Assembly (NCBI GenBank): GCA_949425635.1
Contig: CASPWD010000005.1
Coordinates: 28,552-92,551 of the forward strand
Direction of reading: 5' to 3'
DNA length: 64,000 nucleotides
Source: an uncultured Bacilli bacterium
GTDB taxonomy: Bacteria; Bacillota_I; Bacilli_A; RF39; UBA660
Below are positions 4,715 to 46,646 of the stretch, in pieces. The translations under genes were made by a program, and so were the position numbers. The notes below the pieces were generated by a model. That model made no database searches, had not been told where the DNA came from, and saw nothing but the letters and a program-made list of their open reading frames with translations. Position 1 is the stretch's first letter; each line of letters begins with the position of its first letter.

Positions 4715-4749
4715 TTTAATACACCCCTATATCTTTATACATTCTATTT

Positions 4750-8496: not shown

Positions 8497-8621
8497 ACTA
8501 TCAAACTCCTATCATAATTTAATTTTACTATATATTTACAACAATGTGTACACACTTTACGCATGTACTTTACAAATATTGTCATTATAGTTTTTTAAAT
8601 TAACGATAGGAATTTTATATT

Positions 8622-10112: not shown

Positions 10113-10186
10113 ATGACTCTCCCCTTGTTTCGTTTTATGATTATAATACTGGTTGTTTTTTTAGTCAAAAAAAAGTAGCTTTTTCG

Positions 10187-11839: not shown

Positions 11840-11861
11840 TTTAATCAGTCCTTTCTAATAA

Positions 11862-12080: not shown

Positions 12081-12111
12081 TAATTATAGTAAATTGTATT
12101 TCTTTTGTCAA

Positions 12112-13873: not shown

Positions 13874-13950
13874 TGGTGATCCGTATGGGATTCGGACCCA
13901 TGTATGTAACCTTGAGAGGGTTATGTGTTAAACCACTTCACCAACGGACC
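13874..13950 (-). tRNA. tRNA-Glu (anticodon CUC)
   Basis: Hand-folded cloverleaf: GGTCCGT acceptor / ACGGATC-A-CCA, anticodon stem TAACC/GGTTA with loop CTCTCAA (CUC). The 5' half resembles Bacillus tRNA-Glu (GGnCCGTTGGT...). The T-loop reads TCCGAAT, so position 55 is C instead of the near-invariant U. A terminator hairpin lies at 13841-13868. Confidence 0.75.
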
Positions 13951-14009: not shown

Positions 14010-15044
14010 TTATTCAGAATATATTTTATTAATTGTTCCGCCACCTAAACATATATCATTATCGTATAAGACTAGCGATTGACCAGGAGTTGCTGATTTA
14101 ACTGGTTCATCAAAAGTAACTTTGATATCGTTATTATCTAATACTTCTATAGAACAAGGTGTTGGTTGATATTTATATCTTATTTTACCTAGAGCTTTTA
14201 TAGGTAATTTATCTACAAGTAAATTAACATCTGTTATTTCAATTGTATTGCTATATAAATCACTTTCAGTACCTAAGATTACCTCATTTGTATCTTTATT
14301 TATTGAGATAACGTATAAAGGATGCTTATAACTTATACCAAGTCCTTTTCTTTGACCTATTGTATAATAAATTATACCTTTATGTTTACCTAATACTTCA
14401 CCTGTTTTTAAGACAAAATTGCCACTATCAGGAAGTTTGTCCATGTTTTCTTCTAAGAATTTTGTATATACTCCATTTTCAATAAAACAGATATCTTGAC
14501 TATCTTTTTTCTTGGCTGTTTCTAGTTTTAAATTTGAAGCAATTTCTCTAATGGTCTCTTTATTAGGATATTCACTTAGAGGAAATAAGATGTTGTTAAG
14601 AATACTTTTATCTATTTTATATAGGAAGTAGCTTTGGTCTTTTGGTGAATCTATTTTGCATAGTTTACCATTTTTTATTGCTGCATAATGACCAGTAGCA
14701 ATATATTCACAGTTAAGTTCTTGCGCTTTTTTCCAAAGAAGACCAAATTTTAAATGTTTATTACATTCAATACAAGGATTAGGAGTTTGAGCATTTTTAT
14801 ATGAGTTAATAAAGTTATCTATAACATGATTTTTAAATTCAGCTTGATAGTTAACGATATGATGTTCAATACCTAGGGTATCACAAACTTTTTTAGCGTC
14901 TATGCATGATGTATCATTTTCTTTAGTGAATAAAGTCATTGTTACACCTACTACTTCATAACCTTGTTCTTTTAAAAGATAAGCTGCTGTTGATGAATCT
15001 ACACCACCAGACATTCCTAATAAGACTCTTTTCATATACTTCAC
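14010..15044 (-). CDS. mnmA: tRNA 2-thiouridine(34) synthase
   Basis: PP-loop 'GMSGGVDSS'. Conserved Cys residues (CIECN...) and 'DQSYFL' match the MnmA layout. A promoter of TTTACA-17-TATAAT lies upstream. Confidence 0.9.
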   Translation of the reverse strand: MKYMKRVLLGMSGGVDSSTAAYLLKEQGYEVVGVTMTLFTKENDTSCIDAKKVCDTLGIEHHIVNYQAEFKNHVIDNFINSYKNAQTPNPCIECNKHLKFGLLWKKAQELNCEYIATGHYAAIKNGKLCKIDSPKDQSYFLYKIDKSILNNILFPLSEYPNKETIREIASNLKLETAKKKDSQDICFIENGVYTKFLEENMDKLPDSGNFVLKTGEVLGKHKGIIYYTIGQRKGLGISYKHPLYVISINKDTNEVILGTESDLYSNTIEITDVNLLVDKLPIKALGKIRYKYQPTPCSIEVLDNNDIKVTFDEPVKSATPGQSLVLYDNDICLGGGTINKIYSE

Positions 15045-15114
15045 TCCTCTTTTTAAATCATTATATACTTCAAATAACGTTATGTAAAGGCAAGAAAAAA
15101 AGAAACTCCCGTTT

Positions 15115-15771
15115 CTAATTATCTCTAGCTTTTCCTAATAATCTTAGTAAATCTAAGAAAATATTAATTATATCAAGGAATAATTGGAAAGCTATGTAAA
15201 TTCCTTTGTTTTCACAATCACTTAGGAAGTTTTCATCTAAAGCACGTTGAACATCATAAGCAATATATGCACAGAATATTAAGATTGAAGCAACACATAA
15301 TATCATGTTTAAAGTATTATTTGCGATGAAGATGTTTACTATTTCTAAAACAATGACTGCTAGTAATCCAACAAATAAGTATACCCACCATTTTGATAAA
15401 TCGATTTTTGTAAATTTACCTATTAGAGCAAATAAACCAAATGTTATAGCTGTTGCTAAGAAAACAAAAGCTATAGAACTCGCAGTATAATATAAGAAGA
15501 TTCCTGTTAAGCTTATTCCTGTTAAAACACAATATAGTAAGTAAAGAATCTTAGCAGTTAATGATGACATCTTCCTTATTCTTAATGTCAAGATAAGAGC
15601 AACTACAATTTCTACAATTAACCATAAATAGAAGCCGTTCATTCCAAATGGAGCATATATTAAATACATCATTTGTGGCGAATATGTTGCTGTAATAGAT
15701 ACACCAAAACATATTAAAAGTCCAATGAACAACCATAAGAAGGACTCTGTTAAAACTTTATTTTTATTCAT
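15115..15771 (-). CDS. BAX inhibitor-1/YccA family membrane protein
   Basis: 218 aa with 7 TM segments and the family-typical C-terminus 'FQLFLDIINIFLDLLRLLG'. Confidence 0.75.
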   Translation of the reverse strand: MNKNKVLTESFLWLFIGLLICFGVSITATYSPQMMYLIYAPFGMNGFYLWLIVEIVVALILTLRIRKMSSLTAKILYLLYCVLTGISLTGIFLYYTASSIAFVFLATAITFGLFALIGKFTKIDLSKWWVYLFVGLLAVIVLEIVNIFIANNTLNMILCVASILIFCAYIAYDVQRALDENFLSDCENKGIYIAFQLFLDIINIFLDLLRLLGKARDN

Positions 15772-15786
15772 GTTCTCTCTCCTTTT

Positions 15787-16332
15787 TTAATTTTCGTTTA
15801 TTATTAAACCATATTTTCTTGCTAGTGTTTCTATTGTTGTGGTATTCATACTACCATAATATCCAAATACTTGTTTTTTATTCTTAATTATTATAGTTGA
15901 TGGAGTTGTTTGGATAAAATCTCCAAATTTCCCCTTTTCTCCTTGTAATTCATAGTCTATATCGAGTTTATCTATAAACTTATTTAAGTCGTCTATTTGA
16001 GATTCATCTATTGACGAAAGTTCTAGATAATAAACAGGAAAGCCAAATTTAGCTTCTGCTATTTGTAAATAAGGAACATACCCAATTGTAGCACTACAAG
16101 TTTCTAAACCTGCAACTAAGTATACTGGATCATCTTGTTCAAATAATTTTAAAGCTTCTTGTAATGTTACTACTTCAAAGTATTTTGTATCAACCTTAGC
16201 TACTTGAACTTCTTCATTATCTTCATGAGTTACAAATAAAGTTACAAGAATTACTGATAAACAAACTAACAAAACTGTATAGATGGCGAAATTATTTTTA
16301 AAGTGTTTTTTTATTTTTTCCATTTTATTCAC
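15787..16332 (-). CDS. Membrane-anchored hypothetical protein (possible thioredoxin-like fold, no CxxC)
   Basis: N-terminal TM segment. 'LVAGLETCSATIGYVPYL' sits where a thioredoxin fold would carry CxxC. Weak call. Confidence 0.3.
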   Translation of the reverse strand: MNKMEKIKKHFKNNFAIYTVLLVCLSVILVTLFVTHEDNEEVQVAKVDTKYFEVVTLQEALKLFEQDDPVYLVAGLETCSATIGYVPYLQIAEAKFGFPVYYLELSSIDESQIDDLNKFIDKLDIDYELQGEKGKFGDFIQTTPSTIIIKNKKQVFGYYGSMNTTTIETLARKYGLIINEN

Positions 16333-21594: not shown

Positions 21595-21670
21595 TGGTTA
21601 CCCCAGTAGGATTCGAACCTACGGAATGTCAGGGTCAGAGCCTGATGCCTTACCGCTTGGCGATGGGGTA
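21595..21670 (-). tRNA. tRNA-Gln (anticodon CUG)
   Basis: Cloverleaf: TACCCCA / TGGGGTA-A-CCA acceptor, D-arm GCCAAGCGGTAAGGC (as in Bacillus tRNA-Gln), anticodon stem TCAGG/CCTGA with loop CTCTGAC, and a T-arm GTAGG-TTCGAAT-CCTAC. A terminator hairpin lies at 21562-21582. Confidence 0.85.
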
Positions 21671-29661: not shown

Positions 29662-30208
29662 AATTTAAAATATTTTTTATTAACTCAAATTCTTCTTTAT
29701 GATTAATTATTTCATCATTAGCAATTAATGTAAGAAGTTCTTCTTTTGTAAACCAACGTGCTTCACTTACCTCTTCTACTTGTACTATTATATCTTCAAG
29801 GTCAACGTCGGATTTTATTAAATAGACATAGACAAATTCTTTACTATTTACTCCGTTGCTTAAAAATTCTTCTTTTATTTTATTTAAAAATTGAAATTCA
29901 AATTTTTCTGAGTCTAAACCTAGTTCCTCTGCTAATTCTCTTTTGGCAGAAATAAGTGGTTCTTCTCCTGTAGTAATATGACCACCAACTGTTATGTCCC
30001 ACATATTGGGATATAGTTTTTTATCTGGACATCTTTTTTGTAAAAGTATTTTTGTTTTATCTTCGTTAATTAGTAAAATGTGAATTGAGCTATGCCATAT
30101 TCCATTTTGATGAGCTTTATTTTTACTGATCGTTTCTCCTGTTTTTTCTCCTGTAGTTTCATCATAAATATCAATTATTTCTTCCATTTTTCTACTCTTT
30201 TCTTTCAT
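29660..30208 (-). CDS. Nudix hydrolase
   Basis: Complete Nudix box 'GGHITTGEEPLISAKRELAEELGL'. Overlaps the upstream gene by 4 nt. Confidence 0.75.
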   Translation of the reverse strand: MKEKSRKMEEIIDIYDETTGEKTGETISKNKAHQNGIWHSSIHILLINEDKTKILLQKRCPDKKLYPNMWDITVGGHITTGEEPLISAKRELAEELGLDSEKFEFQFLNKIKEEFLSNGVNSKEFVYVYLIKSDVDLEDIIVQVEEVSEARWFTKEELLTLIANDEIINHKEEFELIKNILN

Positions 30209-30999
30209 TTATTTTTTAGATTTTCTTCATTATATTGGCAAAGAACCGATGGACGATGACCACCTGTTTGAACCATTTCCTCTGTTAAAATTACCTTGTC
30301 AGCAATCGTTCTACGGAAAGCAGAATTTACTAATTTTTTATTTAGTAAAAGTTCATATACTTGTTTTAGTTCGCCTATCGTAAATTTTTCTGGCATTAAG
30401 TTAAAGACTATATCTGTATTATTTACTTTGTTTCGAAGTTCCATAATACCATCGATTATTAATTTAGCATGGTCAAAAGCAAGATTACTTTGAGAAGTCA
30501 CTTCATAATTATATTCATCACTTTTTATGTCGATAGGTATTTTCTTAACATCATAGTTAATCGTTTCTTCTCCATTAGTTAATACTATATGATAAAAGTT
30601 ATTTTCTTCTGTTATACATATATCAAACCAACAAGCATTTTCTTGTAGTTTTTCTACTAATAATGTACGATCAATTAATGCCATGTATGATACTGATATC
30701 ACTCTACCTCTAGGATCTCGATTTACAGCATCATTAACACTTAATTGTTGCATGTAGACATTAGTAAGACCTGTTTCTTTTGTTAAGACCCTATCACTAG
30801 CGATTTTAGAAGTTTCACCTGATTCAATAAATCCACCTGGAAGACACCACTTATCAACAAATGGTTCCTTATCTCTTTTAACAAGTAAAATACTAAAATG
30901 CTTTACAGGAAGAGAACGCGTGTTAGCGTTCTTTCGACTATCAATACCGAATATAAGTAAGTCAGTTGTGTATGCTACATTAAATTTTATTTTTTTCAT
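30205..30999 (-). CDS. NrtR-like regulator (degenerate Nudix domain + C-terminal winged helix)
   Basis: The Nudix box is degenerate: 'PGGFIESGETSKIASDRVLTKETGL', with RE changed to DR and EE to KE. The C-terminus 'LAFDHAKLI...LMPEKFTIGELKQVYELLLNKKL..SAFRRTI...RPSVLCQY' matches the NrtR wHTH pattern. Confidence 0.65.
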   Translation of the reverse strand: MKKIKFNVAYTTDLLIFGIDSRKNANTRSLPVKHFSILLVKRDKEPFVDKWCLPGGFIESGETSKIASDRVLTKETGLTNVYMQQLSVNDAVNRDPRGRVISVSYMALIDRTLLVEKLQENACWFDICITEENNFYHIVLTNGEETINYDVKKIPIDIKSDEYNYEVTSQSNLAFDHAKLIIDGIMELRNKVNNTDIVFNLMPEKFTIGELKQVYELLLNKKLVNSAFRRTIADKVILTEEMVQTGGHRPSVLCQYNEENLKNK

Positions 31000-31319
31000 A
31001 AATACATTCTCCCATTAACATCTAATCTAATCTCTTTAACGCTTACTCTCAAGTTTTGTAAAGCTCTTCTTTTAACAGTAGTCGGAAGCTTTGATGCGTT
31101 AATATCTGTTTCTATATTACAACATGGACATTTAAATGTATAGCAGAAATCTTGTTTAGAATACATAAAATCAGGTGTTTCTTCATCTTTTAAAATAGGT
31201 ATTGCATAAATATCTTCGGCTTCAACTTCTAATACTGCTCCACATCCACCACCATTAGTTCCTATTCCTAGACAATAATGTTTTATTGACCATTTTTTTC
31301 CTTCATTTAATACCTTCAT
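30996..31319 (-). CDS. Small Cys-rich (putative Zn-ribbon) protein, paralog 5 of 5
   Basis: MKVLNEG..W.I..YC...GGGCGAVLEVEAEDIY...YTFKCPCCNIET.I. Has its own AGGGGA RBS. Confidence 0.7.
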   Translation of the reverse strand: MKVLNEGKKWSIKHYCLGIGTNGGGCGAVLEVEAEDIYAIPILKDEETPDFMYSKQDFCYTFKCPCCNIETDINASKLPTTVKRRALQNLRVSVKEIRLDVNGRMYL

Positions 31320-31342
31320 TTTTATTTCCCCTAATTAATTTT

Positions 31343-31669
31343 TTATCTATACCCTAATTTTTTTAAGTACTTTAACTTTGTTCCATTGGCTTGTTCAATA
31401 TTAAGGATCGCTTTTCTAACTTCTATAGGTATTTCACTATCATCAATCAAAGTTTCTTTATTACAGCATGGACATTTAAATGTATAAGAGAAATCATTAT
31501 AATTGGAAAGTTCACTATTTCTCTTATCATTATTAGCTTTCTGTTGATAACTTAAATAGATATCCACAGCTTCTACTTCTAATAAAGCTTCGCAGCCACC
31601 ATCATTATTTTTATTAGCTATGCATTCTTTTTCAATCTTCCAAATAACTGGTTCTTTTACAACTTTCAT
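31343..31669 (-). CDS. Small Cys-rich (putative Zn-ribbon) protein, paralog 4 of 5
   Basis: I place the start at MKVVKEP, by analogy with the paralogs. Motifs 'W.IEKEC', 'GGCEALLEVEAVDIY' and 'YTFKCPCCNKET'. Confidence 0.7.
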   Translation of the reverse strand: MKVVKEPVIWKIEKECIANKNNDGGCEALLEVEAVDIYLSYQQKANNDKRNSELSNYNDFSYTFKCPCCNKETLIDDSEIPIEVRKAILNIEQANGTKLKYLKKLGYR

Positions 31670-31694
31670 TACCATCACCGCCATATATTAACAA

Positions 31695-32024
31695 TTATTT
31701 CTTAGATAAAGTTTTTTTATAATCACTCAATCTTTTTTTAGAAGATTCGGTGGTCTTTAATAACTTTCTCATTCTTTCTGGAATGTCATTTTTATTTATT
31801 AAATTTTCTTTTCCACAACATGGACATTTAAAAGCATAAGATTCATCAATGTAGTAATGTAGATATTCATCTCCTGAATTACTATAAGATTTTTGTTTAA
31901 AATTTAAATATATGTCTTCTAAAGAAACTTCTAATATTGCTCCACATCCAAGTTCACTATAATTATCAAGACATTCTTGTTGAATAGTCCAAGTAATTTT
32001 AATAGGTTCTTTTATAACTTTCAT
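31695..32024 (-). CDS. Small Cys-rich (putative Zn-ribbon) protein, paralog 3 of 5
   Basis: MKVIKEP...WTIQQEC...LGCGAILEVSLEDIY...YAFKCPCCGKEN. AGAGG RBS. Confidence 0.7.
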   Translation of the reverse strand: MKVIKEPIKITWTIQQECLDNYSELGCGAILEVSLEDIYLNFKQKSYSNSGDEYLHYYIDESYAFKCPCCGKENLINKNDIPERMRKLLKTTESSKKRLSDYKKTLSKK

Positions 32025-32043
32025 ACATTTACCTCTTTAATTG

Positions 32044-32376
32044 TTAACTTTTGCTTAACTTTTTTTGATTATTTGATTCCTTTTTTTCTTTTTCTTTATT
32101 CACTATGATTTTTCTTATTTTATCAGGAATATCATTATCTTTTATAGATGTTTCTTTTCCACAACATGGACACCTAAAAACAAATATCTGAACTTGATAA
32201 CGATAGCTTTCTCCATCACGTTCATCATATCCATATTGCATTTTCATCTTTGGATATATATCAGACATATCAACTTCTAATACTGCTCCACAACCATAAT
32301 CTCCAGTACTAACATCTGCTATACATTCTTTTTCAATACTCCAAGAAACTGGAACTGGTTCTTTTATTATTTTCAT
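32044..32376 (-). CDS. Small Cys-rich (putative Zn-ribbon) protein, paralog 2 of 5
   Basis: MKIIKEP...WSIEKEC...YGCGAVLEVDMSDIY...FVFRCPCCGKET. GGAGG RBS. Confidence 0.7.
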   Translation of the reverse strand: MKIIKEPVPVSWSIEKECIADVSTGDYGCGAVLEVDMSDIYPKMKMQYGYDERDGESYRYQVQIFVFRCPCCGKETSIKDNDIPDKIRKIIVNKEKEKKESNNQKKLSKS

Positions 32377-32395
32377 AGTAGGTATACCTCCAAAC

Positions 32396-32662
32396 TTATC
32401 TACTTAAACTTCTTCCTCTATTTCTTGCAAGATTTCTAACTCCTGAAGGAACTAATTTATCAGGAATATCAGTTTCGACTCCACAGCAAGGACATTTGAA
32501 TGTCCAGAAATAATCTGTATCTCCTGTGTAGTCTGTACTAGATGTTTGATAGATGTCTTCTTTTTCTACAGCAAGTAATGCACCACATCCGCCACCACCA
32601 TTTCCTACTCCAGTACAAGTTTGTTCTATTGACCATCCTGGTCCTTCTTTTAGCACTTTCAT
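32396..32662 (-). CDS. Small Cys-rich (putative Zn-ribbon) protein, paralog 1 of 5
   Basis: MKVLKEGPGWSIEQTC...GGGGCGALLAVEKEDIY...WTFKCPCCGVET. GAGGAG RBS. Confidence 0.7.
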   Translation of the reverse strand: MKVLKEGPGWSIEQTCTGVGNGGGGCGALLAVEKEDIYQTSSTDYTGDTDYFWTFKCPCCGVETDIPDKLVPSGVRNLARNRGRSLSR

Positions 32663-32756: not shown

Positions 32757-32783
32757 TAAAAAAATCCCCTGCTTTTAGGGATT
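32757..32783 (-). terminator. Intrinsic terminator after the modification operon
   Basis: Minus-strand ATCCCTAAAAGCAGGGGAT followed by T7, 3 nt after the methyltransferase stop codon. Confidence 0.7.
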
Positions 32784-32786
32784 TTA

Positions 32787-33476
32787 TTATTTTACAAATT
32801 CGAACAAAACTATCTTATGTTCAATAAGTTCACTCTTAACTCTACTTGCTACCTCTACTCCATATATTTCTAAAAAACATTTTCGTGCTTCGTCTTTGGA
32901 ATCAAATTTAAAATAAGTATTAAATCTTTCCATGACTTTAAATCCGTTATTCAAAATCCAATTATTATAATCTTTAGTACGTGTATCTTTATCGTGGCCT
33001 CTTAAAGTTTCAAATTCACTATCTTCCTCATTTTCAATTAATATAATCTTTCCACCTGGTTTTAAGACTCTCTTTAAATCTTGCAAACATAATTCTCTAT
33101 CTCCTAAATCAGTAATTGTTCCAAGAACCCATGGTGATACAATTAAATCAATTGAATCAGAACATAACATTGTATCTTTTAAATTAGTATTAACAAAAAT
33201 TGAATTTTCTTTTCTAGACTTTATTTTAGCTTTTACTAGTTGATTGAATGATAAGTCTATTCCAATATATTTACTTGAGACATCTTCTAAAATTTGTAAA
33301 AACTTACCTGTACCGCAGCCTGCATCCAATACAATCTTATCTTTTGCTATTTTACTTAAATAATTTACAACTTTACTTTCACCATCTTCCGCTTTACTAA
33401 ATATTTCATAGTAATCATTATTTTCATAGTAGGCACTAGAATCTTTTAAGAGATTTTTTTCTTTCATCTTCCTCAC
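32787..33476 (-). CDS. Class I SAM-dependent methyltransferase
   Basis: Motif I 'VLDAGCGTGKF' and post-I 'GIDLS'. Overlaps the end of the ATP-grasp gene. Confidence 0.75.
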   Translation of the reverse strand: MRKMKEKNLLKDSSAYYENNDYYEIFSKAEDGESKVVNYLSKIAKDKIVLDAGCGTGKFLQILEDVSSKYIGIDLSFNQLVKAKIKSRKENSIFVNTNLKDTMLCSDSIDLIVSPWVLGTITDLGDRELCLQDLKRVLKPGGKIILIENEEDSEFETLRGHDKDTRTKDYNNWILNNGFKVMERFNTYFKFDSKDEARKCFLEIYGVEVASRVKSELIEHKIVLFEFVK

Positions 33477-34500
33477 TTCTTTCTTTTGTTTCTGGATATA
33501 TTAAATCCACCATGTACTTAGCAATATTCTGTGATTTACCAATTGCTGGGCGAAAATGCATATGTACTCCTGGTACTGTATTAATCTCAATAATACGATA
33601 TGTTCCCATATTTTGTTTTTTATCAATGCTATTTGTCATAAAATCAATTCCTACATAAGGAAGTCCAGGAAAGGCTTCAAGGACACGCATTCCAATGTCA
33701 ATAACACTTTCGTGGACCTTGTCAGTATAATCAACACATAGGCCACCCATTGCAACATTTGAATTCGGTCGTAAGTAAACTTTCTTTCCTAATTTAGGAA
33801 TAGTATTCATGCTTATACCATTTTTGTTCATGAATCTTAGCATTTCCTCATCTACTAGAATTTCACACAATGCATTAGTGCGTGGATGCATACGATAATA
33901 ATTTTCTTCAGCTATTAATTCCTTTATTGTCTTCTTACCATCACCGTAAACGTGAGCAGGATCTCTTAATAATACAGCATAATCTCTATTCTTAGTTATA
34001 AATACTCTAAACTCTTTTGATGCGAAATATTCTTCGATTAGAACTTTAGCTTTTTCACCTTTACTTCTTATTATCTTTGCTAACGCTTCTATAACATCTT
34101 CTTTAGTTCTAAGATCTGTATAAACATCGTAGCCATGTGAACCAAAAACTGGTTTTAAAACAACTGGACGGTTTAGAATTTCAAATGCCTTAAGAATATC
34201 TGATTTATAATTTGCACTAAAAACTGCACCAGTTGGAACACTGATTCCTGCATTAAACAATATTTCTTTAGTGATTCCCTTATCACCAGCAAGAATAGAA
34301 ACATTGTATGGCATTATTGAAGAATCACGATCATATATTAATTCATCATGTCCTTGATAAGATGCTTTTATTAATTCAAGTCCCTCATCTAAAACGTCAA
34401 CTTTAATTCCACGACGTAACATTTCATAAATTAAAATTTTTTGATTAGAATGTAAATTTTTATAAATATTTTCCATATCACCATCTACTTTCGCCATCAT
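33436..34500 (-). CDS. ATP-grasp ligase (GshF C-terminal / cyanophycin-synthetase-type)
   Basis: 'DKGITKEILFNAGISVPTG', 'VVLKPVFGSHGYDV', 'HVYGDGKKTIKELI', 'LRPNSNVAMGG..VDYTD.VH' and 'IIEINTVPGVHMHFRP' resemble the amino-acid-ligating ATP-grasp of GshF/CphA. An alternative start (ATG, complement 34474-34476) lies 1 nt after the stop of the upstream gene. Confidence 0.7.
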   Translation of the reverse strand: MMAKVDGDMENIYKNLHSNQKILIYEMLRRGIKVDVLDEGLELIKASYQGHDELIYDRDSSIMPYNVSILAGDKGITKEILFNAGISVPTGAVFSANYKSDILKAFEILNRPVVLKPVFGSHGYDVYTDLRTKEDVIEALAKIIRSKGEKAKVLIEEYFASKEFRVFITKNRDYAVLLRDPAHVYGDGKKTIKELIAEENYYRMHPRTNALCEILVDEEMLRFMNKNGISMNTIPKLGKKVYLRPNSNVAMGGLCVDYTDKVHESVIDIGMRVLEAFPGLPYVGIDFMTNSIDKKQNMGTYRIIEINTVPGVHMHFRPAIGKSQNIAKYMVDLIYPETKERSEEDERKKSLKRF

Positions 34501-35086
34501 GACTTTCAGATGAGTCGTATCCCCAACTTGAATAGGATGGAGAAACCTTCTTTTTTGGAGTTAATGTAAGTTTTTTTACTTCATTAATCTTTTCCTCAAA
34601 TTCATCACTTTCTTTCTCAATTTCACTAATTATACGGTCTTCCCTAATTTGTCTTAGTTTTTCTATTTGCTGTTTTCTCCTTTTTAAAGATTTGCTATAT
34701 TTTTCTCCTCTTCCTTGTAATTGTTCTAAAACAGGTATTGTTATTTCTAGTTGTTCGATTAAAGAATCAATATCTTCAAAGTTACTATACTTAGCTGGAA
34801 TACTTGAATCATCTAGCGTTCTATCTATTGTTGGTTTTGATGTAGTTTGTTTCGGTTGGCTACTTCTTATAATAGGAGCACACGATTCACTTGCTTCCCT
34901 ACTTTCAGAGGATACAAAACCTCTTACACTTCTTGGAGTTTGTGTAACACGACTTTCACTAGATTCATGAGATTCACTAGACCATGATGAAAATGGGGTG
35001 TAACTTCTACTTTCACTAGAACACCTACTTTCACTTGAATATCCGTAAGAATATCCTCTACTTTCTCCACTACGACTTTCACTCAT
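34478..35086 (-). CDS. SES[RH]-repeat protein with central coiled coil (unknown function)
   Basis: A strong AAGGAG RBS lies 10 nt upstream, inside the end of the previous gene. The N-terminal ~80 aa carry 8 copies of (S/G)ES(R/H/C), interspersed with GYSYGYS and SSWS. The middle is a K/E/R-rich helical segment. The C-terminus ends 'SSWGYDSSESHDGESRW'. Confidence 0.65.
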   Translation of the reverse strand: MSESRSGESRGYSYGYSSESRCSSESRSYTPFSSWSSESHESSESRVTQTPRSVRGFVSSESREASESCAPIIRSSQPKQTTSKPTIDRTLDDSSIPAKYSNFEDIDSLIEQLEITIPVLEQLQGRGEKYSKSLKRRKQQIEKLRQIREDRIISEIEKESDEFEEKINEVKKLTLTPKKKVSPSYSSWGYDSSESHDGESRW

Positions 35087-35092
35087 TTTAAC

Positions 35093-35929
35093 TCATCTCC
35101 TTAATATTATTACGCCATCACTTTTTTCTTCTTCTGGTTCTAGCGCACTTCTAAATCTTTTTGCTTCATAATTTTTAAAAACTTTATCTACTAAACTTAA
35201 ATTATCGATTTCACTTCTTGGATTACTATTTCCAATATCATAAAGGTAGGCCATATAAATTTTCTTAACTCTATCTAGAAATTTATTCATCAAATCCCTA
35301 TACTTTATAAGTCCATCTTTACCATACATCATTCCAATATAATCAGATATATTAGATAAAAACATATAATCAAAATATTCATCTAACTCTAAATTTTCTA
35401 AACTACAAGTAATATGTCTAATTTTTAATCCACTCAACTTATCTTTAACTAAATTATAACTATCTTCATTTAAATATAAATTCTGCCATACTTTACTATC
35501 TGGATTAAAATACTTACGATTAAAATAATGAGAATTTTTTAAGCTTCTTCCATCTTTATTAAACTCTTGTAATTTATCTAACCAAAACATTCTACTTTCA
35601 ACTGGCAAATCCAAACTGGAAATAATATCATAATCAAAGCTTATCTTTGTATCATAAAGAAGGAAATTAACAAAATCATTAAAATCTAACTTTTTTAATG
35701 CTGATAATTTCAAATCCATGTACTTCTCAGTAAGTGGATTAATATCAAACGTTGTAACATCAAGTCCACCTCTAGCTACTATATTTAAAATATGATCAGT
35801 TGAACCAGTAACTGTTATTACTTTTGTACCAGTTAAATCTAAATCATCCATATATCCTGCGATATTCTCCGTTGTAAAAGGATAAATACTATCAAATCTT
35901 TCCATAACATTTACCACTTCCTTTTGCAC
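35093..35929 (-). CDS. DUF3419 / BtaA-like SAM-dependent (3-amino-3-carboxypropyl-transferase-like) protein
   Basis: 'TKVITVTGSTDHILNIVARGGLDVTTFDINPLTEKYMDLKLSALKKLDFNDFVNFL' matches the BtaA-family pattern as I remember it (xVLxIxSxGxNxL....V.AVD.NP.Q..LLELK.AA...L....F..F). Recognised from memory only. Confidence 0.5.
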   Translation of the reverse strand: MQKEVVNVMERFDSIYPFTTENIAGYMDDLDLTGTKVITVTGSTDHILNIVARGGLDVTTFDINPLTEKYMDLKLSALKKLDFNDFVNFLLYDTKISFDYDIISSLDLPVESRMFWLDKLQEFNKDGRSLKNSHYFNRKYFNPDSKVWQNLYLNEDSYNLVKDKLSGLKIRHITCSLENLELDEYFDYMFLSNISDYIGMMYGKDGLIKYRDLMNKFLDRVKKIYMAYLYDIGNSNPRSEIDNLSLVDKVFKNYEAKRFRSALEPEEEKSDGVIILRR

Positions 35930-37352
35930 ATAAGAACTTAGTTAACTTTTTATCTTTTAATACTTCGTCAAGTGGATTATCTCGTAAAGATATATCAGAT
36001 ATACAGGTCTTATCTACTTCATGTACCCAAGGACATGGACTTACTTGACCAAAATTGTTTATATATAAAAACTTATCTCCAGCTGGACATCTATGAATCG
36101 TAATTGGTTGATGTCCAAAGTTATAATTCACTACAATTTTTCCTTTATATTTACTTCTAAGATCATCGAGTTCACTTATTAAATCTTCTGTATTTCTTTT
36201 CTTAAATAAACTTTTATCTTGTCCTTCAACAGGTTCCATAATAGAAAATATTATTTCATCAGCTGCTAAGCTACTAGAATCTCTTATTAATCCTTCCAAA
36301 TTTCTCTCATTATTAGCATGTATTACAGCTCCGACTCTTACCTTATTTGTTGAATTCTTTAGTAACTCAATTCCCCTAATTGTTCTTAGATAAGTATCTT
36401 TACCTCTAACTGCTTCATGTTCTAACCTATTTCCATCTAAACTAACATGAATCATTTTCAGTTTAAGTTCATTAAGTAATCTTACCTTTTCTTCAGTAAG
36501 AAGTGATGCATTAGTAGAAATATCTGTTATTAATTTACTACTTGCATATCTTAAAATATCTATAATATCTCTTATAATAAAAGGTTCTCCACCAGTTATC
36601 TTTAGATGTCTAAAATCATGTGTACAAAGCTCATCAATTATATGAAAACATTCTTCTGTAGTTAGTTCATTCGTAATCTTACTATTCTTATGGCAAGAAA
36701 ATATACAATAAGAACAACCATAATTACATTTATGAGTTATCTCCCAAATTGCCTTACCTCCACCATCATTAGGTAACGTAAATTTACAATCCATTCCATT
36801 AATAAAGCTTTGTATTAATTCCATATCTACGTTTGTATCATTATTAACAACTAAAACATTATTGGCTTCGAGTCTACTCCTATCAAATTCTTGTAATTTG
36901 AATCTTTGTAATATTTCCTCTTTTGATAGATCGCTATTCCCAAGTCTTTCTAATCTCTTATTAACACTAGTATCAACATAGATTATTTTCTCAAATAAAC
37001 TTTCCAAATTATCATTAAATATTAATGCCCAATCAACTAAAATTGTTTTATTATCAAACTCTTCAATATACATCATAAAATATCTATAAAGAACTTCCTT
37101 ATATCTATTCATATAATCTTCATTTGAATAAATAAACTTATTTAATATTCTAGAATCAACTTCATTATATAAATTTAATTCTGGTATAGCTCTCTTTAGC
37201 TCATTAACATAACTTTCATTCTTAAATAGACTTCTTCTAAATTCATCGACATCTATATAAATAAAATCTCTATTATCAAGCATTATCTTTCTAGCAATTG
37301 TTGTTTTACCAGCAGACATCCCACCAGTTATTCCTATTAATCTATTCTTCAT
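35892..37352 (-). CDS. Fusion protein: dephospho-CoA-kinase-like P-loop NTPase + radical SAM/SPASM domain
   Basis: N-terminal 'LIGITGGMSAGKTT' (CoaE-like Walker A) spans about 190 aa. Then 'CNYGCSYC' (CxxxCxxC) and 'ITGGEPF'. The C-terminus 'HRCPAGDKFLYINNFGQVSPCPW...C...C....C' is SPASM/twitch-like. I place the start at MKNRLIG. Confidence 0.75.
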   Translation of the reverse strand: MKNRLIGITGGMSAGKTTIARKIMLDNRDFIYIDVDEFRRSLFKNESYVNELKRAIPELNLYNEVDSRILNKFIYSNEDYMNRYKEVLYRYFMMYIEEFDNKTILVDWALIFNDNLESLFEKIIYVDTSVNKRLERLGNSDLSKEEILQRFKLQEFDRSRLEANNVLVVNNDTNVDMELIQSFINGMDCKFTLPNDGGGKAIWEITHKCNYGCSYCIFSCHKNSKITNELTTEECFHIIDELCTHDFRHLKITGGEPFIIRDIIDILRYASSKLITDISTNASLLTEEKVRLLNELKLKMIHVSLDGNRLEHEAVRGKDTYLRTIRGIELLKNSTNKVRVGAVIHANNERNLEGLIRDSSSLAADEIIFSIMEPVEGQDKSLFKKRNTEDLISELDDLRSKYKGKIVVNYNFGHQPITIHRCPAGDKFLYINNFGQVSPCPWVHEVDKTCISDISLRDNPLDEVLKDKKLTKFLCAKGSGKCYGKI

Positions 37353-38688
37353 ACCAACACATCCCATACTTTATTGGAACAAAAGCAGCTACTTTCATTT
37401 CCTTATCTTGATTGTTATATTTCATCCAATCTACATTATCTGTAATAATTTCGTACCCCTCTTTTTTTAAATTTTTAAGTAATAATTCTATTTCATGTTC
37501 TAAGTCCTTATTTTCTATATTAGGTTTATTTCCATGAATATACTGTGTCTTATTAATTACATTTCCGTTCTCTTCATAAACTGGAGTTCCATATCTATAA
37601 GCTAAGTAATGTAAACGAAGTTCGTGAGGTTTAATACTTTTAAGTAACTTTCTTGTTTTCTTTAAATCTTCTACCTTTGTTCCAGGATAATCTAAAATAA
37701 AACTAGTTCTTACTCTATAACCCATATCTTTTACTTCTTTAATTATCTCTTCTACTCTTTTAACATCCATCTCTTTGTTCATCATTTTTAATATCTTTGG
37801 ACTACCAGATTCTAAACCAAAATGAATCCATCGAAATCCAACTTTATACATTTCTTCTAACATTTCTGCATCATAACACTTAATGCTACACAAAGCTCCA
37901 AATAAACATTTTATCTTTCTTTTTCTAATAAGATTACAAATTCTCATCATACGTTTTTTATCAACAGTTGCATTATCATCTAAGAATATTATTTGCTTCG
38001 CTTTATATTTTTTTATCAATATTTCTATTTCATCTACAACTTCTACAGGTGACTTACCACACCACTTTCTAAAATAGTAAGGTGTTGTACAAAACTTACA
38101 TCCACCAATACATCCTCTAGAAGTGATTATCGTTCTTGTCTCCATATACTTAGAAATATCCACGAATTCTCTATCTATCATTGGAAGTTTATTGTAATTA
38201 TTTGGCATAAAGACTTGTTTAGTAATGACAACTTTCTCATTATCTTTATAAACAATATTAGGAATTTTATTTAACTTGTCCTTATCAAATACATTTTCTA
38301 TAACATCATTAATTAATTCTTCTGCAATTCCCTTTATAACTACATCAACACCATTTTCTAAAAACTTACTATAAGAGTATGTTGATGTTTTACCAACCAT
38401 AATGACTTTACTTTCTCTATTTAGATTCTTGATTATTTCAAATATATTATTTATTGCTTCACTTGTATGTAGTGGTAACTGATAGTCATAAACAAATACA
38501 ATAACATTTTTACTTTCTAGATATTCATTTATATTATTTTCCATTCTATTAACATCCATATCGATAACTCTTACATTATTAAATCTTTCTTTAACTACTG
38601 TAGCTATTTGTAGAACATCAAGTGGTTCAGCTAAGATTGTTTCATTTGTAAAAGGTTTATTAGGTGGGTTTACTACTAAAATATTCAT
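37342..38688 (-). CDS. B12-binding-domain radical SAM enzyme (class B-like)
   Basis: N-terminal Rossmann-like region of about 170 aa, then 'CIGGCKFC' and a TIM-barrel region. 448 aa. Confidence 0.75.
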   Translation of the reverse strand: MNILVVNPPNKPFTNETILAEPLDVLQIATVVKERFNNVRVIDMDVNRMENNINEYLESKNVIVFVYDYQLPLHTSEAINNIFEIIKNLNRESKVIMVGKTSTYSYSKFLENGVDVVIKGIAEELINDVIENVFDKDKLNKIPNIVYKDNEKVVITKQVFMPNNYNKLPMIDREFVDISKYMETRTIITSRGCIGGCKFCTTPYYFRKWCGKSPVEVVDEIEILIKKYKAKQIIFLDDNATVDKKRMMRICNLIRKRKIKCLFGALCSIKCYDAEMLEEMYKVGFRWIHFGLESGSPKILKMMNKEMDVKRVEEIIKEVKDMGYRVRTSFILDYPGTKVEDLKKTRKLLKSIKPHELRLHYLAYRYGTPVYEENGNVINKTQYIHGNKPNIENKDLEHEIELLLKNLKKEGYEIITDNVDWMKYNNQDKEMKVAAFVPIKYGMCWYEE

Positions 38689-38803
38689 ATTTATCTCTCC
38701 TCTTATTTACATTATAGTAATAACATACAAATAAATAAAATGAATATTTCTCATATACAACATTACTCGTAGTTATATAAAATCGGAGACTGGTTTCTAA
38801 CAT

Positions 38804-38828
38804 AAAAAAAGGACTATTAATTAGTCCT
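38804..38828 (-). terminator. Intrinsic terminator separating gene 38834-39547 from the radical SAM operon
   Basis: Minus-strand AGGACTAATTAATAGTCCT followed by T7. Confidence 0.8.
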
Positions 38829-38833: not shown

Positions 38834-39547
38834 TTATTTAGTTAATTTTTTACTTTGAACACTTTCTAAAGAAAAATCTTTGTTTTCAAGAACTGTACAA
38901 GAAAAACCATATTTCTTAGCTATTTTATTTACTGACTCTGCAGTTACATTTCTTTTATCACCTTGATTAATTAATAAAATCAATTTATCTTCAAGTCTAA
39001 TAAGACCGCGGAATAGTCTTCCATCTACTTGGAATTCTGCTTCTTTGTCTTCGTCTAAATAGTTTAAATCATCACTTTCGACATCTGTTGTGTATCCTAA
39101 ACTTAGACTTCCTTCAAGAAATGGGAAATAATCAAAGCCTCTATTATTAGTTCTTGATATGCTATCAGCAAAAGCATCATCTACTACATATTCTTCTCTA
39201 GCGAACCATAATTCAGGAATGGTTTTATCGTCTTCATGTTTTTCTGATATTGGAGCAAAACTTACTTCATGATAAACAAAACCTTTATTATCTAAATAAG
39301 ATCTTATATCATTTGCTATGACTTCTCCACCACGCATTAACATTAATAAAATATCATTTTCTTCACTATATAAAAATGTGTCAAATTGTCTACTTACTAT
39401 TTTTTCTCCACCAAGATTAAAGTTACTTAAAACATTAGTAAAAATAATAATATCATTATCAGTTTTTATATTATCTAAAGCGGTTTTTAATTCACTTGGT
39501 AAAGATTGGATTGCCCATACATCTAAATTGCTATTCATACTAAACAC
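38834..39547 (-). CDS. Hypothetical acidic protein
   Basis: 237-aa ORF behind an AGGAGAG RBS. No motif recognised. Confidence 0.4.
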   Translation of the reverse strand: MFSMNSNLDVWAIQSLPSELKTALDNIKTDNDIIIFTNVLSNFNLGGEKIVSRQFDTFLYSEENDILLMLMRGGEVIANDIRSYLDNKGFVYHEVSFAPISEKHEDDKTIPELWFAREEYVVDDAFADSISRTNNRGFDYFPFLEGSLSLGYTTDVESDDLNYLDEDKEAEFQVDGRLFRGLIRLEDKLILLINQGDKRNVTAESVNKIAKKYGFSCTVLENKDFSLESVQSKKLTK

Positions 39548-39662: not shown

Positions 39663-40445
39663 TTAGAATAATCCCCATTCGGCAAATTTTTCGAAGCCTC
39701 CAATACTTTTAATATATTCTTTTGCTTCAGAAACTATGGAACTATAAGGCAAATTATCAACAAATTCATCGCCAATTGCACAACTTATTTTTACAACTTC
39801 GCCCGTTTCTTGAGCTTTTTTGAAAGCGTAAATATTTATAGAAACGTCAGCTTTGGATAAATCTTTGCCATGTAACCCGCCTCCTGTAATGCTGTCTGCC
39901 ATATCAGATCCTAATTTTCTGTTCGTTGCTCCTGAGTCGACATCTGTTCCTCCAGTCCATTCTCCTAAAGGGTTTATAACTGCATCAGGATAAATTGTTT
40001 TTAAATCATCTGTCTTGGCATTACTTTGACAAATTATAAGTTTATCATTATCTAAAATATATTTACCATCAAATGGATACTTTGAATAAATTTCTCTAGC
40101 AATTTTAGATAACTCTTTTTGCTCTTTCGTTAAAGGCACTCCTTTAAATATTCCATTATCTCCACATCTAATTTGATTTGTTTGGTTAGCTGCTAGGTGA
40201 ATATCTTGTTTTACAACATTTAAATCTAACTTAAGTGGACCAGCTATACGATTTACAATTTTTTGTACTTCATTTTCTGTAAAGTTTTCACTTGTTTCAG
40301 CAATAATATGACAATTTCCATGGCCTATAAGTACTTCTACAGCTATTTTACAATTGTCATTTTTAGAATAAGCAAGATCAACTAGAGCTCCAGCTATTCT
40401 ATCAGCCACCTTATCAGGATGGCTTGGGTTTACTTTCTCAATCAT
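39663..40445 (-). CDS. Compact S-adenosylmethionine synthetase (MetK)-like protein
   Basis: I place the start at MIEKVNP behind a GGAGG RBS. 'SHPDKVADRIAGALVD' aligns with MetK 'GHPDKIADQISDAVLD', 'CGDNGIFKG' with 'GDQGLMFGY', and 'NPLGEW..GG...DSGATNRKLGSD....ITGGGLHGKDLSKADVS' with 'NPTGRFVIGGP.GD.GLTGRKIIVDTYGG...HGGGAFSGKDPSKVDRS'. It is only about 260 aa, versus about 385-400 aa for canonical MetK. Confidence 0.65.
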   Translation of the reverse strand: MIEKVNPSHPDKVADRIAGALVDLAYSKNDNCKIAVEVLIGHGNCHIIAETSENFTENEVQKIVNRIAGPLKLDLNVVKQDIHLAANQTNQIRCGDNGIFKGVPLTKEQKELSKIAREIYSKYPFDGKYILDNDKLIICQSNAKTDDLKTIYPDAVINPLGEWTGGTDVDSGATNRKLGSDMADSITGGGLHGKDLSKADVSINIYAFKKAQETGEVVKISCAIGDEFVDNLPYSSIVSEAKEYIKSIGGFEKFAEWGLF

Positions 40446-40469
40446 TTTAAAATCTCCTCCTAACACATC

Positions 40470-40595
40470 AAATAAAAACACCCAAGATAACTTTCTTGAG
40501 TGTAAAAGCTATCTTATCGTACTAGCATTACCACCTAATTTAATAGGTTGGTGCGACTTCTTAGGGCTAGTCCCTCCATCGCTCTTTATAAGATG
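40470..40595 (-). promoter_or_regulatory. SAM-I (S-box) riboswitch with terminator
   Basis: Minus-strand read is CTTATAAAGAGCGATGGAGGGACTAGCCCTAAGAAGTCGCACCAACC...GGTGGTAATGCTAGTACGATAAG, showing the S-box blocks GAGGGA, GCCC, AAGAA, CAACC and GGTG.TAA. It is followed by the terminator CACTCAAGAAAGTTATCTTGGGTG + T5. Confidence 0.85.
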
Positions 40596-46571: not shown

Positions 46572-46646
46572 GCAGGTGTAGTACAACGGTTAGTATGCGA
46601 CCTTGCCAAGGTTGAGATGGCGGTTCGATTCCGCTCACTTGCTCCA
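46572..46646 (+). tRNA. tRNA-Gly (anticodon GCC)
   Basis: Cloverleaf: GCAGGTG / CACTTGC-T-CCA, anticodon stem CGACC/GGTTG with loop TTGCCAA, and a T-arm GGCGG-TTCGATT-CCGCT. A terminator lies at 46657-46687. Confidence 0.85.

Follow-up and report, generated by a model that had tools for sequence, protein, structure and literature searches.

What is the function of a cassette in which two radical S-adenosylmethionine (SAM) enzymes, three other enzymes and a repeat protein are encoded in a single run of genes? The question is raised by a locus in a 64,000-nucleotide stretch of DNA from an uncultured Bacilli bacterium (contig CASPWD010000005.1; the whole stretch analysed is hereafter called the window), for which an initial annotation had proposed an uncharacterized system that matures a peptide, a protein or a scaffold-borne metabolite. 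We consider it probable (roughly 0.6) that the cassette is a multi-enzyme maturation system and that the repeat protein, here called g4, serves the five enzymes as substrate or as covalent scaffold. The small protein is the most probable substrate or scaffold because its gene travels with the enzymes over large distances, because its motif survives sequence turnover, and because the relatives of the radical SAM enzymes modify proteins or peptides. Conserved adjacency and the motif thus support the part of the earlier proposal that concerns an uncharacterized system with the repeat protein as its substrate or scaffold, whereas the peptide or protein nature of the substrate is still something that we infer.

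In the open reading frames (ORFs) of the window, six co-directional genes, which we number g1 to g6, occupy ~5.9 kb of the minus strand (32787–38688) between two terminators, and each junction between them either overlaps or leaves a gap of at most 6 nucleotides. The features are given below in the direction of transcription.

38810..38828, minus strand: upstream terminator-like hairpin (7-bp stem and T-run), which ends the unit of a 237-residue ORF; 5′ boundary of the operon.
38689..38809, minus strand: putative promoter and leader of g1, with a perfect −10 element (TATAAT) about 20 nucleotides upstream of the GGAGAG ribosome-binding site and the g1 ATG, and a weak −35 element.
37342..38688, minus strand: g1, B12-binding radical SAM enzyme (class B), 448 residues, from Pfam, NCBIfam and PDB matches.
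35892..37367, minus strand: g2, CoaE-like P-loop kinase joined to a radical SAM enzyme with a C-terminal twitch/SPASM-like domain, 491 residues; probable start at 37352.
35093..35929, minus strand: g3, DUF3419 (BtaA-like) SAM-binding Rossmann protein, 270 residues from the probable start at 35905.
34478..35086, minus strand: g4, 202-residue non-enzyme repeat protein, the proposed substrate, from motif enrichment, an alignment of 17 orthologues and its own ribosome-binding site.
33436..34500, minus strand: g5, stand-alone ATP-grasp ligase; probable start ATG at 34476, 1 nucleotide past the g4 stop.
32787..33476, minus strand: g6, class I SAM-dependent methyltransferase, 224–229 residues (Pfam Methyltransf_11).
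32766..32781, minus strand: downstream terminator-like hairpin that bounds the operon on the 3′ side, 6 nucleotides past the g6 stop.

When the ORF coordinates were re-derived, the six ORFs, their order and their junctions agreed with the initial annotation, terminator hairpins were found at both ends as it had claimed, and all of its domain calls proved right in Pfam and NCBIfam profile searches of the kind it had suggested. The likely start of g2 is 37352, because its orthologues begin at this internal Met. The ribosome-binding site of g4 (AGGAGA) sits within the last codons of g3. The g1 promoter was read directly from the sequence, a consensus promoter scan having missed it.

We noted that the repeat protein carries an unusual motif. 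The N-terminal region of g4 is rich in Ser, Gly and Tyr and contains eight [S/G]ES[R/H/C] motifs from residue 2 onward; the centre reads ‘YSNFEDIDSLIEQLE’ and is followed by a region that resembles a coiled coil, and the C-terminal part includes ‘SSESHDGESRW’ (the coiled-coil and disorder calls for g4 are by-eye readings). The SES[RH] repeat pointed out in the initial annotation is real: g4 has nine copies of [SG]ES[RH] against 0.15 expected from 5000 shuffles (shuffle maximum, 3), and it holds nine of the 11 occurrences in the six frames of the window. All 17 distinct orthologues are built on one plan. They start with M-[S/G/Y]-E-S-R or M-E-S-x, continue through an S/G/Y-rich N-terminal region with several copies of [S/G]-E-S-[R/H/N], and pass through a conserved ‘YNNLDDIDSLIEKLE’ into the coiled-coil-like region; a C-terminal ‘SES[RH]DSGESRW’ is present in 11 of the 17. 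Every orthologue has 3–9 copies of [SG]ES[RH], a number unreached in 5000 shuffles, compared with 0.03–0.17 expected from its own composition; the observed number is 30–100 times the expectation. The first copy lies at residue 2, and the commonest spacing between copies is 6 residues. Because the Arg and Ser codons inside the motif vary, the motif is kept at the protein level; a strong AGT/AGA bias suggests that it may have expanded by duplication as well. Neither g4 nor the small proteins of the distant systems described below matched any family in Pfam, NCBIfam or PHROGs.

Three of the Bacilli proteins (L004, 12262–12909; L015, 5730–6278; L016, 9132–9659) have an extra module, ‘GLSYxDWLxTNPWIxRGGLSSQGE’, right after an ESR motif; it is duplicated in L004, and all three proteins are without the C-terminal SESxDSGESRW tail.

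The cassette recurs in other gut Bacilli. More than 300 homologous clusters of g2 were found at 57–100% identity, the few named ones being ‘uncultured Bacilli’ or ‘Mollicutes bacterium’, and 558 contigs carried one and the same g3 cluster. The two closest genome matches are metagenome-assembled genomes (MAGs) from mouse gut, as judged from a contig search with a single protein that found these two close relatives only, and sporulation genes are present in one cassette host. The same six-gene order is found in all complete loci (L001–L013, L016, L017, L089 and L090), with wholly different flanks. Of the six proteins, g5 is the closest to its counterpart in the window (67–82% identity) and g4 the most distant (28–61%). 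The gene for the repeat protein is adjacent to that for the ATP-grasp enzyme in all Bacilli loci and in five of six distant loci, a co-occurrence that the initial annotation had singled out as worth checking. It had also named, as evidence that would speak for a small-molecule pathway, homologous operons that lack the small protein and lie amid sugar, nucleotide or lipid genes. No such arrangement was seen: the small-protein gene is kept, the flanks are unrelated, and genes of sugar, lipid or nucleotide pathways do not recur beside the cassette in the Bacilli and distant loci compared. We take the system to be self-contained and vertically conserved. Loci L020–L087 of the metagenome scan were set aside as generic radical SAM loci without relatives of g3 or g5.

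Some individual loci depart from this pattern. L088 contains a decayed cassette (7986–13408), with a truncated g1, a g2 that falls into two called ORFs and a g6 of which part has been replaced; this copy adjoins an integrase/Mob_Pre/AAA_25 element, at the place where L006 and L007 have Abi_2 between recG and the cassette. Because this copy is decayed, the cassette is dispensable. In L001, g3 is split into two ORFs (9451–10274), and g1 is truncated to 269 residues in L004 (9199–10008) and L014, whereas L005 (7890–9221), otherwise near-identical to L004, has a full g1 of 443 residues; single MAGs have here suffered either a frameshift or an assembly error. In L004 (14907–17349) and L005 (14120–16562), the genes immediately after the cassette are a C39-peptidase ABC exporter and two small ORFs, and a BceRS/BceAB-like two-component and ABC module with a further radical SAM gene follows it in L090 (9207–16009). 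Such neighbours might be a sign that the product is exported or antimicrobial, though they occur in only 2 of more than 10 contexts.

Is the system peculiar to the source genome? An exhaustive search with g2 against 1.84 billion representative proteins, of which 78 matched at E ≤ 1e-30, shows that it is not: several phyla have it, and in many cases a single protein combines g2, g3 and g6. The radical SAM half of g2 recurs elsewhere at 36–47% identity, either alone (~300–335 residues) or fused to CoaE (~500 residues) or, in many cases, to DUF3419 (~590–650 residues). Longer chains comprise CoaE–radical SAM–DUF3419 (770–860 residues), radical SAM–DUF3419–methyltransferase (~860 residues) and, as single chains with all four parts, CoaE–radical SAM/SPASM–DUF3419–methyltransferase (P0436, 849 residues; P0448, 999 residues). 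The methyltransferase fused to radical SAM–DUF3419 is of the g6 type in P0276, P0402, P0407, P0436 and P0448. Because fusions join them in other phyla, we regard g2, g3 and g6 as one module or machine. Among the source names of the fusions are Patescibacteria, ‘uncultured bacterium (gcode 4)’, Candidatus Margulisbacteria and Alphaproteobacteria; for most loci the taxonomy comes from record names alone.

Six distant contexts were examined, five of them with DNA (L091–L095, from Margulisbacteria, Alphaproteobacteria and others). The usual gene order in them is B12-radical SAM, CoaE, radical SAM–DUF3419, methyltransferase, a small unannotated ORF and ATP-grasp. A tblastn comparison with the proteins of the window detected full-length orthologues of all five enzymes in L091–L095, with identities of 33–36% for g1, 33–42% for g5, 32–41% for g6, 29–32% for g3 and 38–45% for the radical SAM half of g2. 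The GC content of the loci measured, Bacilli and distant together, ranges from 22% to 59%. The small ORF lies directly 5′ of the ATP-grasp gene in L091, L092, L094 and L095, and in each of these it is the sole ORF in the six frames of ~18 kb that starts with M[SG]E[SND] or has at least three copies of [SG]E[SN]. It encodes 158 residues in L091 (MSESVDNDGESYSNQ...SSESPSSESY...KLKYW), 132 residues in L095 (MSESSSYGESSWGSNNGGESSS...KLKYW, with a helical part homologous to that of L091; E = 2e-12), 66 residues in L094 (MSENLSSGSSGENLSSRSRSTRGENL...) and 38 residues in L092 (MSEDNNPTENY...). Enrichment of [SG]E[SN] is significant in three of these four proteins (P = 0.001–0.007). In the sixth distant locus, for which there is no DNA, a 116-residue ORF occupies the same place beside the ATP-grasp gene. 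The SES[RH] motif of the initial annotation, enriched as it is in the Bacilli clade, is therefore too narrow, the cross-phylum core being [S/G]-E-[S/N] from residue 2. Within this cross-phylum invariant, [S/G]-Glu-[S/N], Glu is the only constant functional side chain.

In L093, from Margulisbacteria, a 630-residue protein (4050–5942) that has no Pfam match and ends in an S/Y/G-rich tail (…RSSYSPVYSGRSSGYGSNE) is encoded 40 nucleotides upstream of the B12-radical SAM gene, and may be an alternative substrate there.

The relatives of the two radical SAM enzymes point in the same direction as the small protein. g1 has the features of class B, namely an N-terminal cobalamin-binding Rossmann domain and a CX3CX2C radical SAM core; it matches Pfam Radical_SAM with 79 bits and B12-binding with 30.2 bits, just below the cut-off of 32.1, and the latter domain is clear in its orthologues from L092 and L093. 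Its best NCBIfam matches, both far under cut-off, are the methyl-coenzyme M reductase (MCR) Gln C-methyltransferase (QCMT) and ApyD, and its closest solved structure is 9CCB, which is QCMT according to a review (PMC12931638). We rejected the identification of g1 as QCMT proper: the score with the equivalog model TIGR04014 is 123 bits against a cut-off of 360, the hosts are bacterial, and MCR genes are lacking nearby.

In g2, Pfam and NCBIfam detect CoaE (residues ~6–185) and Radical_SAM with Fer4_12 and a marginal SPASM (residues ~200–491). The Walker A motif, CNYGCSYC and four C-terminal cysteines (C427, C445, C455 and C487, including a CX12GX4C pattern) are invariant over 15 orthologues. Among solved structures, the radical SAM half is closest by sequence to the sactipeptide maturase SkfB (E = 4e-15) and the N-terminal part to dephospho-CoA kinases. 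An AlphaFold2 model (predicted local distance difference test score, pLDDT, 80) gave PqqE, SkfB, SuiB and anSME as the top Foldseek neighbours, with dephospho-CoA kinase for the N-terminal domain. The nearest solved relatives of g1 (QCMT) and g2 (SkfB by sequence, PqqE/SkfB/SuiB/anSME by fold) are therefore protein or peptide modifiers. The kinase half scores 60.9 bits with the CoaE equivalog TIGR00152, just under the cut-off of 65.55, and its Walker A and DxD/RR are invariant; because the kinase is always fused or adjacent to the radical SAM enzyme, its substrate likely differs from that of CoaE. The best NCBIfam matches of g2 as a whole (AhbD, StsB and mycofactocin maturase) are all below cut-off.

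Two more specific identities were rejected for g2. As a sactipeptide or SkfB-type maturase it scores under the cut-offs (rSAM_skfB, 74 bits against 300; StsB, 90 against 625), and the g4 orthologues have no conserved Cys. As a prokaryotic viperin with a kinase it matches pVip of PADLOC and viperin of NCBIfam over the radical SAM core only (profile positions 7–165 of 262; 59–70 bits, with an NCBIfam cut-off of 180); it has the four invariant C-terminal Cys, and its fold is nearer PqqE/SkfB/SuiB.

The remaining enzymes are less easily placed. g3 matches Pfam DUF3419 (E = 5.5e-11; 42.7 bits against a cut-off of 28.2) over profile positions 6–131 of 385 only, a search of its sequence against the PDB gave nothing significant, and its AlphaFold2 model (pLDDT 84) is folded like a class I methyltransferase, though no PDB entry comes closer than a TM-score of 0.46; no lipid genes were seen nearby. 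g6 is a class I methyltransferase (Pfam Methyltransf_11, E = 2.7e-17). g5 matches the NCBIfam models cya_phycin_syn (E = 1.9e-67; 228 bits against a cut-off of 850) and GshAB (1.4e-58; 199 against 425), and in the PDB it aligns over ~270–325 residues with 7wac (CphA1; E = 4e-46) and 3ln7 (GshF; 8e-39). It consists of the ATP-grasp domain alone (345–354 residues), without the N or M domains of CphA and without a GshA domain. Its identification as the cyanophycin synthetase CphA1 or as GshF was rejected, since it falls below their cut-offs and lacks their multi-domain architecture. With the LysX model it scores 37.7 bits against a cut-off of 275.6 (E = 1e-9). Graspetides, with their omega-ester or amide links, have an MdnB/MdnC-type ATP-grasp ligase and a core in which Thr, Ser or Lys is paired with Asp or Glu. 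The strong matches of g5, by contrast, are all to CphA/GshF/Ngg-type ligases, and the motif has both Ser and Glu, but its Ser is replaceable by Gly or Asn; cyanophycin-type ligases go unmentioned in a graspetide survey (PMC8939145). Because the NCBIfam scores all fall short of the curated cut-offs, by a wide margin apart from the near miss with the CoaE equivalog, no cassette protein belongs to a named family. A best match to a characterized pathway, which the initial annotation had listed as counter-evidence, was accordingly not found, no enzyme reaching any curated family cut-off.

How might these enzymes act together? Between them, the five enzymes have six catalytic domains. We propose that the site of both recognition and modification is [S/G]-Glu-[S/N]-x, in the Bacilli clade [S/G]-E-S-[R/H], which occurs once at the extreme N terminus and again, repeatedly, in disordered tails. 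g5 would activate a carboxylate as an acyl phosphate and ligate an amine to it, the carboxylate being either that of the motif Glu or one installed by another enzyme; this activity is probable because ATP-grasp enzymes use acyl phosphates and g5 adjoins the small-protein gene. The CoaE kinase, twitch-type radical SAM enzyme, DUF3419 protein and methyltransferase would act as one unit, using SAM in three ways, as a source of the 5′-deoxyadenosyl radical, for a BtaA-like alkyl transfer (possibly of the 3-amino-3-carboxypropyl group) and for methyl transfer. The B12-radical SAM enzyme g1 might install a methyl group on carbon, or something similar, in the way that QCMT methylates a glutamine of its protein substrate. 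Aminocarboxypropyl transfer, N-methylation and ATP-dependent ligation together would amount to a chemistry like that of diphthamide or betaine lipids moved onto a protein; given a CoaE-like kinase beside an enzyme of the 5′-deoxyadenosyl radical, an adenosyl-type adduct might alternatively become phosphorylated. The end product could be the decorated g4 itself or a fragment released from it.

In its broadest form, this model describes a post-translational pathway in which the module, the B12-radical SAM enzyme and the CphA-type ATP-grasp enzyme convert the Glu of [S/G]-E-[S/N], including the one at the N terminus, into a new complex residue. We put it forward tentatively, as a somewhat less than even bet. 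On this model, the candidates for the new residue would be a diphthamide-like or betaine-like aminocarboxypropyl adduct and an adenosyl-3′-phosphate adduct, and the outcome could be decorated proteins of a new class, with a structural or an effector role, or else a new cofactor that is derived from a peptide and used by small-genome and episymbiotic bacteria.

Several observations weigh against a maturation system acting on g4. The proposed substrate role rests on conserved adjacency and motif conservation, and g4, with a length of 143–215 residues across its orthologues and a coiled-coil-like region, is unlike the classical precursor of a peptide made by the ribosome and modified after translation (RiPP). 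The 38-residue ORF of L092 bears only an N-terminal MSED, and no small ORF of the MSE type was found in L093. No Pfam match to a RiPP recognition element (RRE) or PqqD was found in any cassette enzyme, and no conserved protease, peptidase or exporter was found in the loci compared. The nucleotide enzymes viperin, BlsE and MoaA are also structural neighbours of g2, ranked behind PqqE, SkfB, SuiB and anSME. The known substrates of CoaE-type kinases and BtaA are small molecules (the ribose of a nucleotide and a lipid, respectively), not proteins, and the known targets of ATP-grasp enzymes of the CphA/GshF type are the α-carboxylates of C termini, not Glu side chains.

We weighed three other explanations against this background. 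The small protein might be a consumable or reusable carrier comparable to PqqA, MftA or LysW, on or from whose Glu motif a metabolite or cofactor is built, to be set free afterwards; a redox cofactor needed by small-genome bacteria would be an example, and so would a betaine-like compound. The logic of an ATP-grasp enzyme, a kinase and a carrier is established in LysW/LysX/LysZ, g5 being weakly LysX-like; the closest relatives of g2 include PqqE and the mycofactocin maturase, a protein with a tiny motif in many copies could give rise to many product molecules, and the cassette is kept in small genomes, including Patescibacteria-labelled MAGs and a 1.3-Mb contig. This explanation is nevertheless unlikely, though far from negligible, in view of a cassette with no conserved hydrolase or peptidase for release, a g5 far nearer CphA/GshF than LysX, a g4 with neither a LysW-like zinc ribbon nor an EDWGE tail, and a conserved central coiled-coil-like region in the Bacilli g4, which suggests that the protein itself is functional. 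It is also conceivable, yet in our judgement quite unlikely, that the cassette serves a pathway for a small molecule, a nucleotide, RNA or a lipid and that the small protein is a mere accessory to it, such as a regulator, a chaperone or an assembly factor. A pathway of this kind, making for instance a hypermodified nucleoside like wybutosine (from a radical SAM enzyme, an aminocarboxypropyl transferase and methyltransferases, a similar enzyme mix) or a BtaA/BtaB-like lipid head group, needs no motif that is repeated 3–9 times through rapid turnover and stands at residue 2 across phyla. Its appeal lies in the established activities of CoaE, which phosphorylates the ribose 3′-OH, and BtaA, which alkylates a lipid, in L093, which seems to work without an MSE-type ORF, and in the structural proximity of viperin, MoaA and BlsE to g2. 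The best matches of g1 and g2 are instead protein or peptide modifiers, the surroundings show no conserved genes for nucleotides, sugars or lipids, and the PADLOC match to pVip (70 bits) is to the generic radical SAM core and weaker than those to AhbD and StsB.

The third explanation concerns function and is compatible with the maturation of g4: the matured repeat protein would serve against phages or in conflict between microbes, as an HxsA-like effector or as the precursor of an exported antimicrobial. The His-Xaa-Ser (HXS) system offers a precedent (PMC13128918), and the location of the cassette is variable, with Abi_2 in L006 and L007, integrase/Mob at L088, the C39-ABC exporter in L004 and L005 and the Bce-like module in L090. 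We find this role very doubtful. PADLOC detects no defence family beyond generic radical SAM and methyltransferase matches, no signal peptide or double-glycine leader was seen by eye in g4, and exporter or immunity genes are again confined to the few contexts mentioned; identities of 60–90% over the clade and presence across phyla look like those of a housekeeping accessory trait rather than an arms-race gene. We retain a multi-enzyme maturation system acting on g4 as the preferred explanation.

Might the cassette have arrived on a mobile element? A plasmid or phage origin was rejected: a megablast search against plasmids gave no match, and phages gave generic radical SAM matches only. The whole window is AT-rich (24–34% GC), and the composition of the cassette is not distinct from the rest. 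The window also contains a T-box leader (124 bits; 11881–12077, minus strand) upstream of a 550-residue ORF, and three tRNA genes, for Glu-CTC (13874–13950), Gln-CTG (21595–21670) and Gly-GCC (46572–46646). This ordinary chromosomal content supports a chromosomal rather than mobile origin of the window.

Around the cassette, four further features lie on the same strand.

40511–40594, minus strand: SAM riboswitch RF00162 (63.6 bits), which precedes the MetK-like gene.
39663–40481, minus strand: divergent MetK-like gene, 272 residues, with only the N-terminal Pfam domain detected.
38834–39547, minus strand: 237-residue ORF between the MetK-like gene and the cassette.
30996–32662, minus strand: five tandem Cys-rich paralogs, 88–113 residues.

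The riboswitch-preceded MetK-like gene upstream and the five Cys-rich proteins downstream are both present as initially annotated. The further suggestion that either flank could supply extra substrates did not hold, since the MetK-like gene and the Cys-rich paralogs are found next to the cassette in L001, L002 and L008, the three nearest relatives, and nowhere else. We regard them as local synteny, because they are absent from the other loci and have their own promoter. The MetK-like gene, the 237-residue ORF and the Cys-rich paralogs were therefore rejected as cassette members, being absent outside these three relatives and forming a separate promoter/terminator unit; the overlap of the last Cys-rich gene with an NrtR-like gene was a further reason. 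The 237-residue ORF has no match in Pfam, NCBIfam, PADLOC or PHROGs and no counterpart in any related locus. The MetK-like protein is ~110 residues shorter than canonical methionine adenosyltransferases, keeps HPDKVADRI and GG..HGKDLSKADVS, and is 82–83% conserved in the trio L001, L002 and L008. A minimal SAM synthetase is a possible identity for it. In L092, a canonical MetK (14991–16154; 387 residues, all three Pfam domains) is encoded ~3 kb away, on the strand opposite to that of the cassette. The presence of a MetK-like gene near the cassette in the window and of MetK in L092 may be a coincidence or a loose tie to SAM supply. The Cys-rich paralogs share invariant Cys16 and Cys26 and a zinc-ribbon-like CPCC motif, match phrog_2834 (function unknown) weakly, and have their own strong promoter (TTGACA-18-TAAAAT, 32716–32687); the last of them overlaps the start of an NrtR-like Nudix regulator gene (30205–30999), which is followed by a Nudix hydrolase gene and a Cu-oxidase_4/YfiH gene.

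If the maturation of g4 is correct, an enzyme set without description would modify a ribosomally made protein in bacteria ranging from abundant gut Bacilli to Margulisbacteria, Alphaproteobacteria and Patescibacteria-labelled MAGs. It would also give a first functional context to bacterial DUF3419 proteins beyond betaine lipids, to CoaE-like kinase–radical SAM fusions and to stand-alone ATP-grasp enzymes of the cyanophycin synthetase type. That the cassette is kept in very small genomes suggests a function important for host-associated or episymbiotic life. With one operon and a clear, mutable motif, it is a compact and tractable target that might bring to light novel radical SAM/B12 chemistry, a novel RiPP-like class or a novel cofactor.

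How, then, does the cassette compare with known systems? No description of the cassette, or of radical SAM–DUF3419 or CoaE–radical SAM fusions, was found in the full-text literature searched, which includes few subscription journals, and DUF3419 appeared there in betaine-lipid contexts only. In line with the initial annotation, which had recognized no described RiPP or modification class in the enzyme combination, neither a curated family nor a published account was found for it in these searches. The nearest concept is HXS, in which an effector with His-Xaa-Ser repeats keeps phage DNA from entering the cell once two radical SAM enzymes have matured it (PMC13128918). Like HXS, the cassette encodes a ribosomally made protein with short tandem repeats of the tripeptide type together with two radical SAM enzymes, here its probable maturases. 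g2 matches HxsB weakly (E = 6.5e-15; 55 bits against a cut-off of 370), and NCBIfam gave no HxsA, HxsC or HxsD match for g4 or its neighbours. The repeats differ (H-x-S as opposed to [S/G]-E-[S/N]), the cassette is without a peptidoglycan-binding domain, signal peptide or HxsD, and it adds a B12-radical SAM enzyme, CoaE kinase, DUF3419 protein, methyltransferase and ATP-grasp enzyme to an HXS-like set. Membership in HXS was rejected on account of the HxsB score, the lack of HxsA, HxsC and HxsD, and the different repeat; identity with a PADLOC defence system was rejected as well, the matches being just to the radical SAM core/pVip and generic methyltransferases.

The systems of SkfB/SkfA, PqqE/PqqA, MftC/MftA and SuiB, which supply the best matches of g2, resemble the cassette in having a Cys-rich auxiliary-cluster domain and a small ribosomally made substrate (in the cassette, a proposed one) encoded alongside. 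Unlike these SPASM/twitch maturases, the cassette has no RRE or PqqD, its motif has no conserved Cys, Tyr or Trp, and g2 is fused to a kinase. Of the features of a RiPP cluster, a ribosomally encoded precursor-like gene beside modifying enzymes is present; a leader and core with a protease or exporter and an RRE were not found, the C39-ABC exporter occurring only in L004 and L005 and the Bce-like module only in L090. QCMT and the B12-radical SAM enzymes of RiPP pathways (of the ApyD and PoyC type) methylate sp3 carbons of protein or peptide residues. The target of QCMT is Gln, which is the amide of the Glu that is invariant in the cassette motif; its organisms and its substrate differ from those of g1.

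Small carriers and known ligases afford further parallels. LysW is an acidic zinc-ribbon carrier of ~54 residues that ends in EDWGE, present just once; the RimK-type LysX loads the carboxylate of its Glu, a kinase follows, and LysK releases the product. The cassette would share with it the Glu of a small carrier, an ATP-grasp ligase, a kinase and further enzymes, whereas LysW systems have no radical SAM enzymes and do have a release hydrolase, of which the cassette has no conserved example. Membership in the LysW/amino-group carrier protein systems was rejected, as g4 has neither the Cys4 ribbon nor the EDWGE tail, the LysX score is low and no hydrolase is conserved. The ATP-grasp domains of CphA1 and GshF form peptide bonds via an acyl phosphate; g5 differs from them in being a lone ATP-grasp domain encoded beside a small-protein gene.

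BtaA, a member of DUF3419, is a SAM:diacylglycerol 3-amino-3-carboxypropyl transferase. In the diphthamide pathway (Dph1/2, Dph5 and Dph6), aminocarboxypropyl transfer, N-methylation and ATP-dependent ligation/amidation take place on a His acceptor of EF2. The toolkit logic of BtaA/BtaB and of diphthamide (aminocarboxypropyl transfer, N-methylation and, for diphthamide, ATP-dependent ligation) is analogous to that of the cassette; the sole homology is that of g3 to the N-terminal third of DUF3419, Dph2 and Dph6 being unrelated to g2 and g5. The cassette is of a known kind, in that it is probably a case of radical SAM-dependent maturation of a ribosomally made protein or peptide; its enzyme set has no described counterpart, and presumably neither does its chemistry. 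There is a substantial chance that the cassette is more novel than this kind of maturation.

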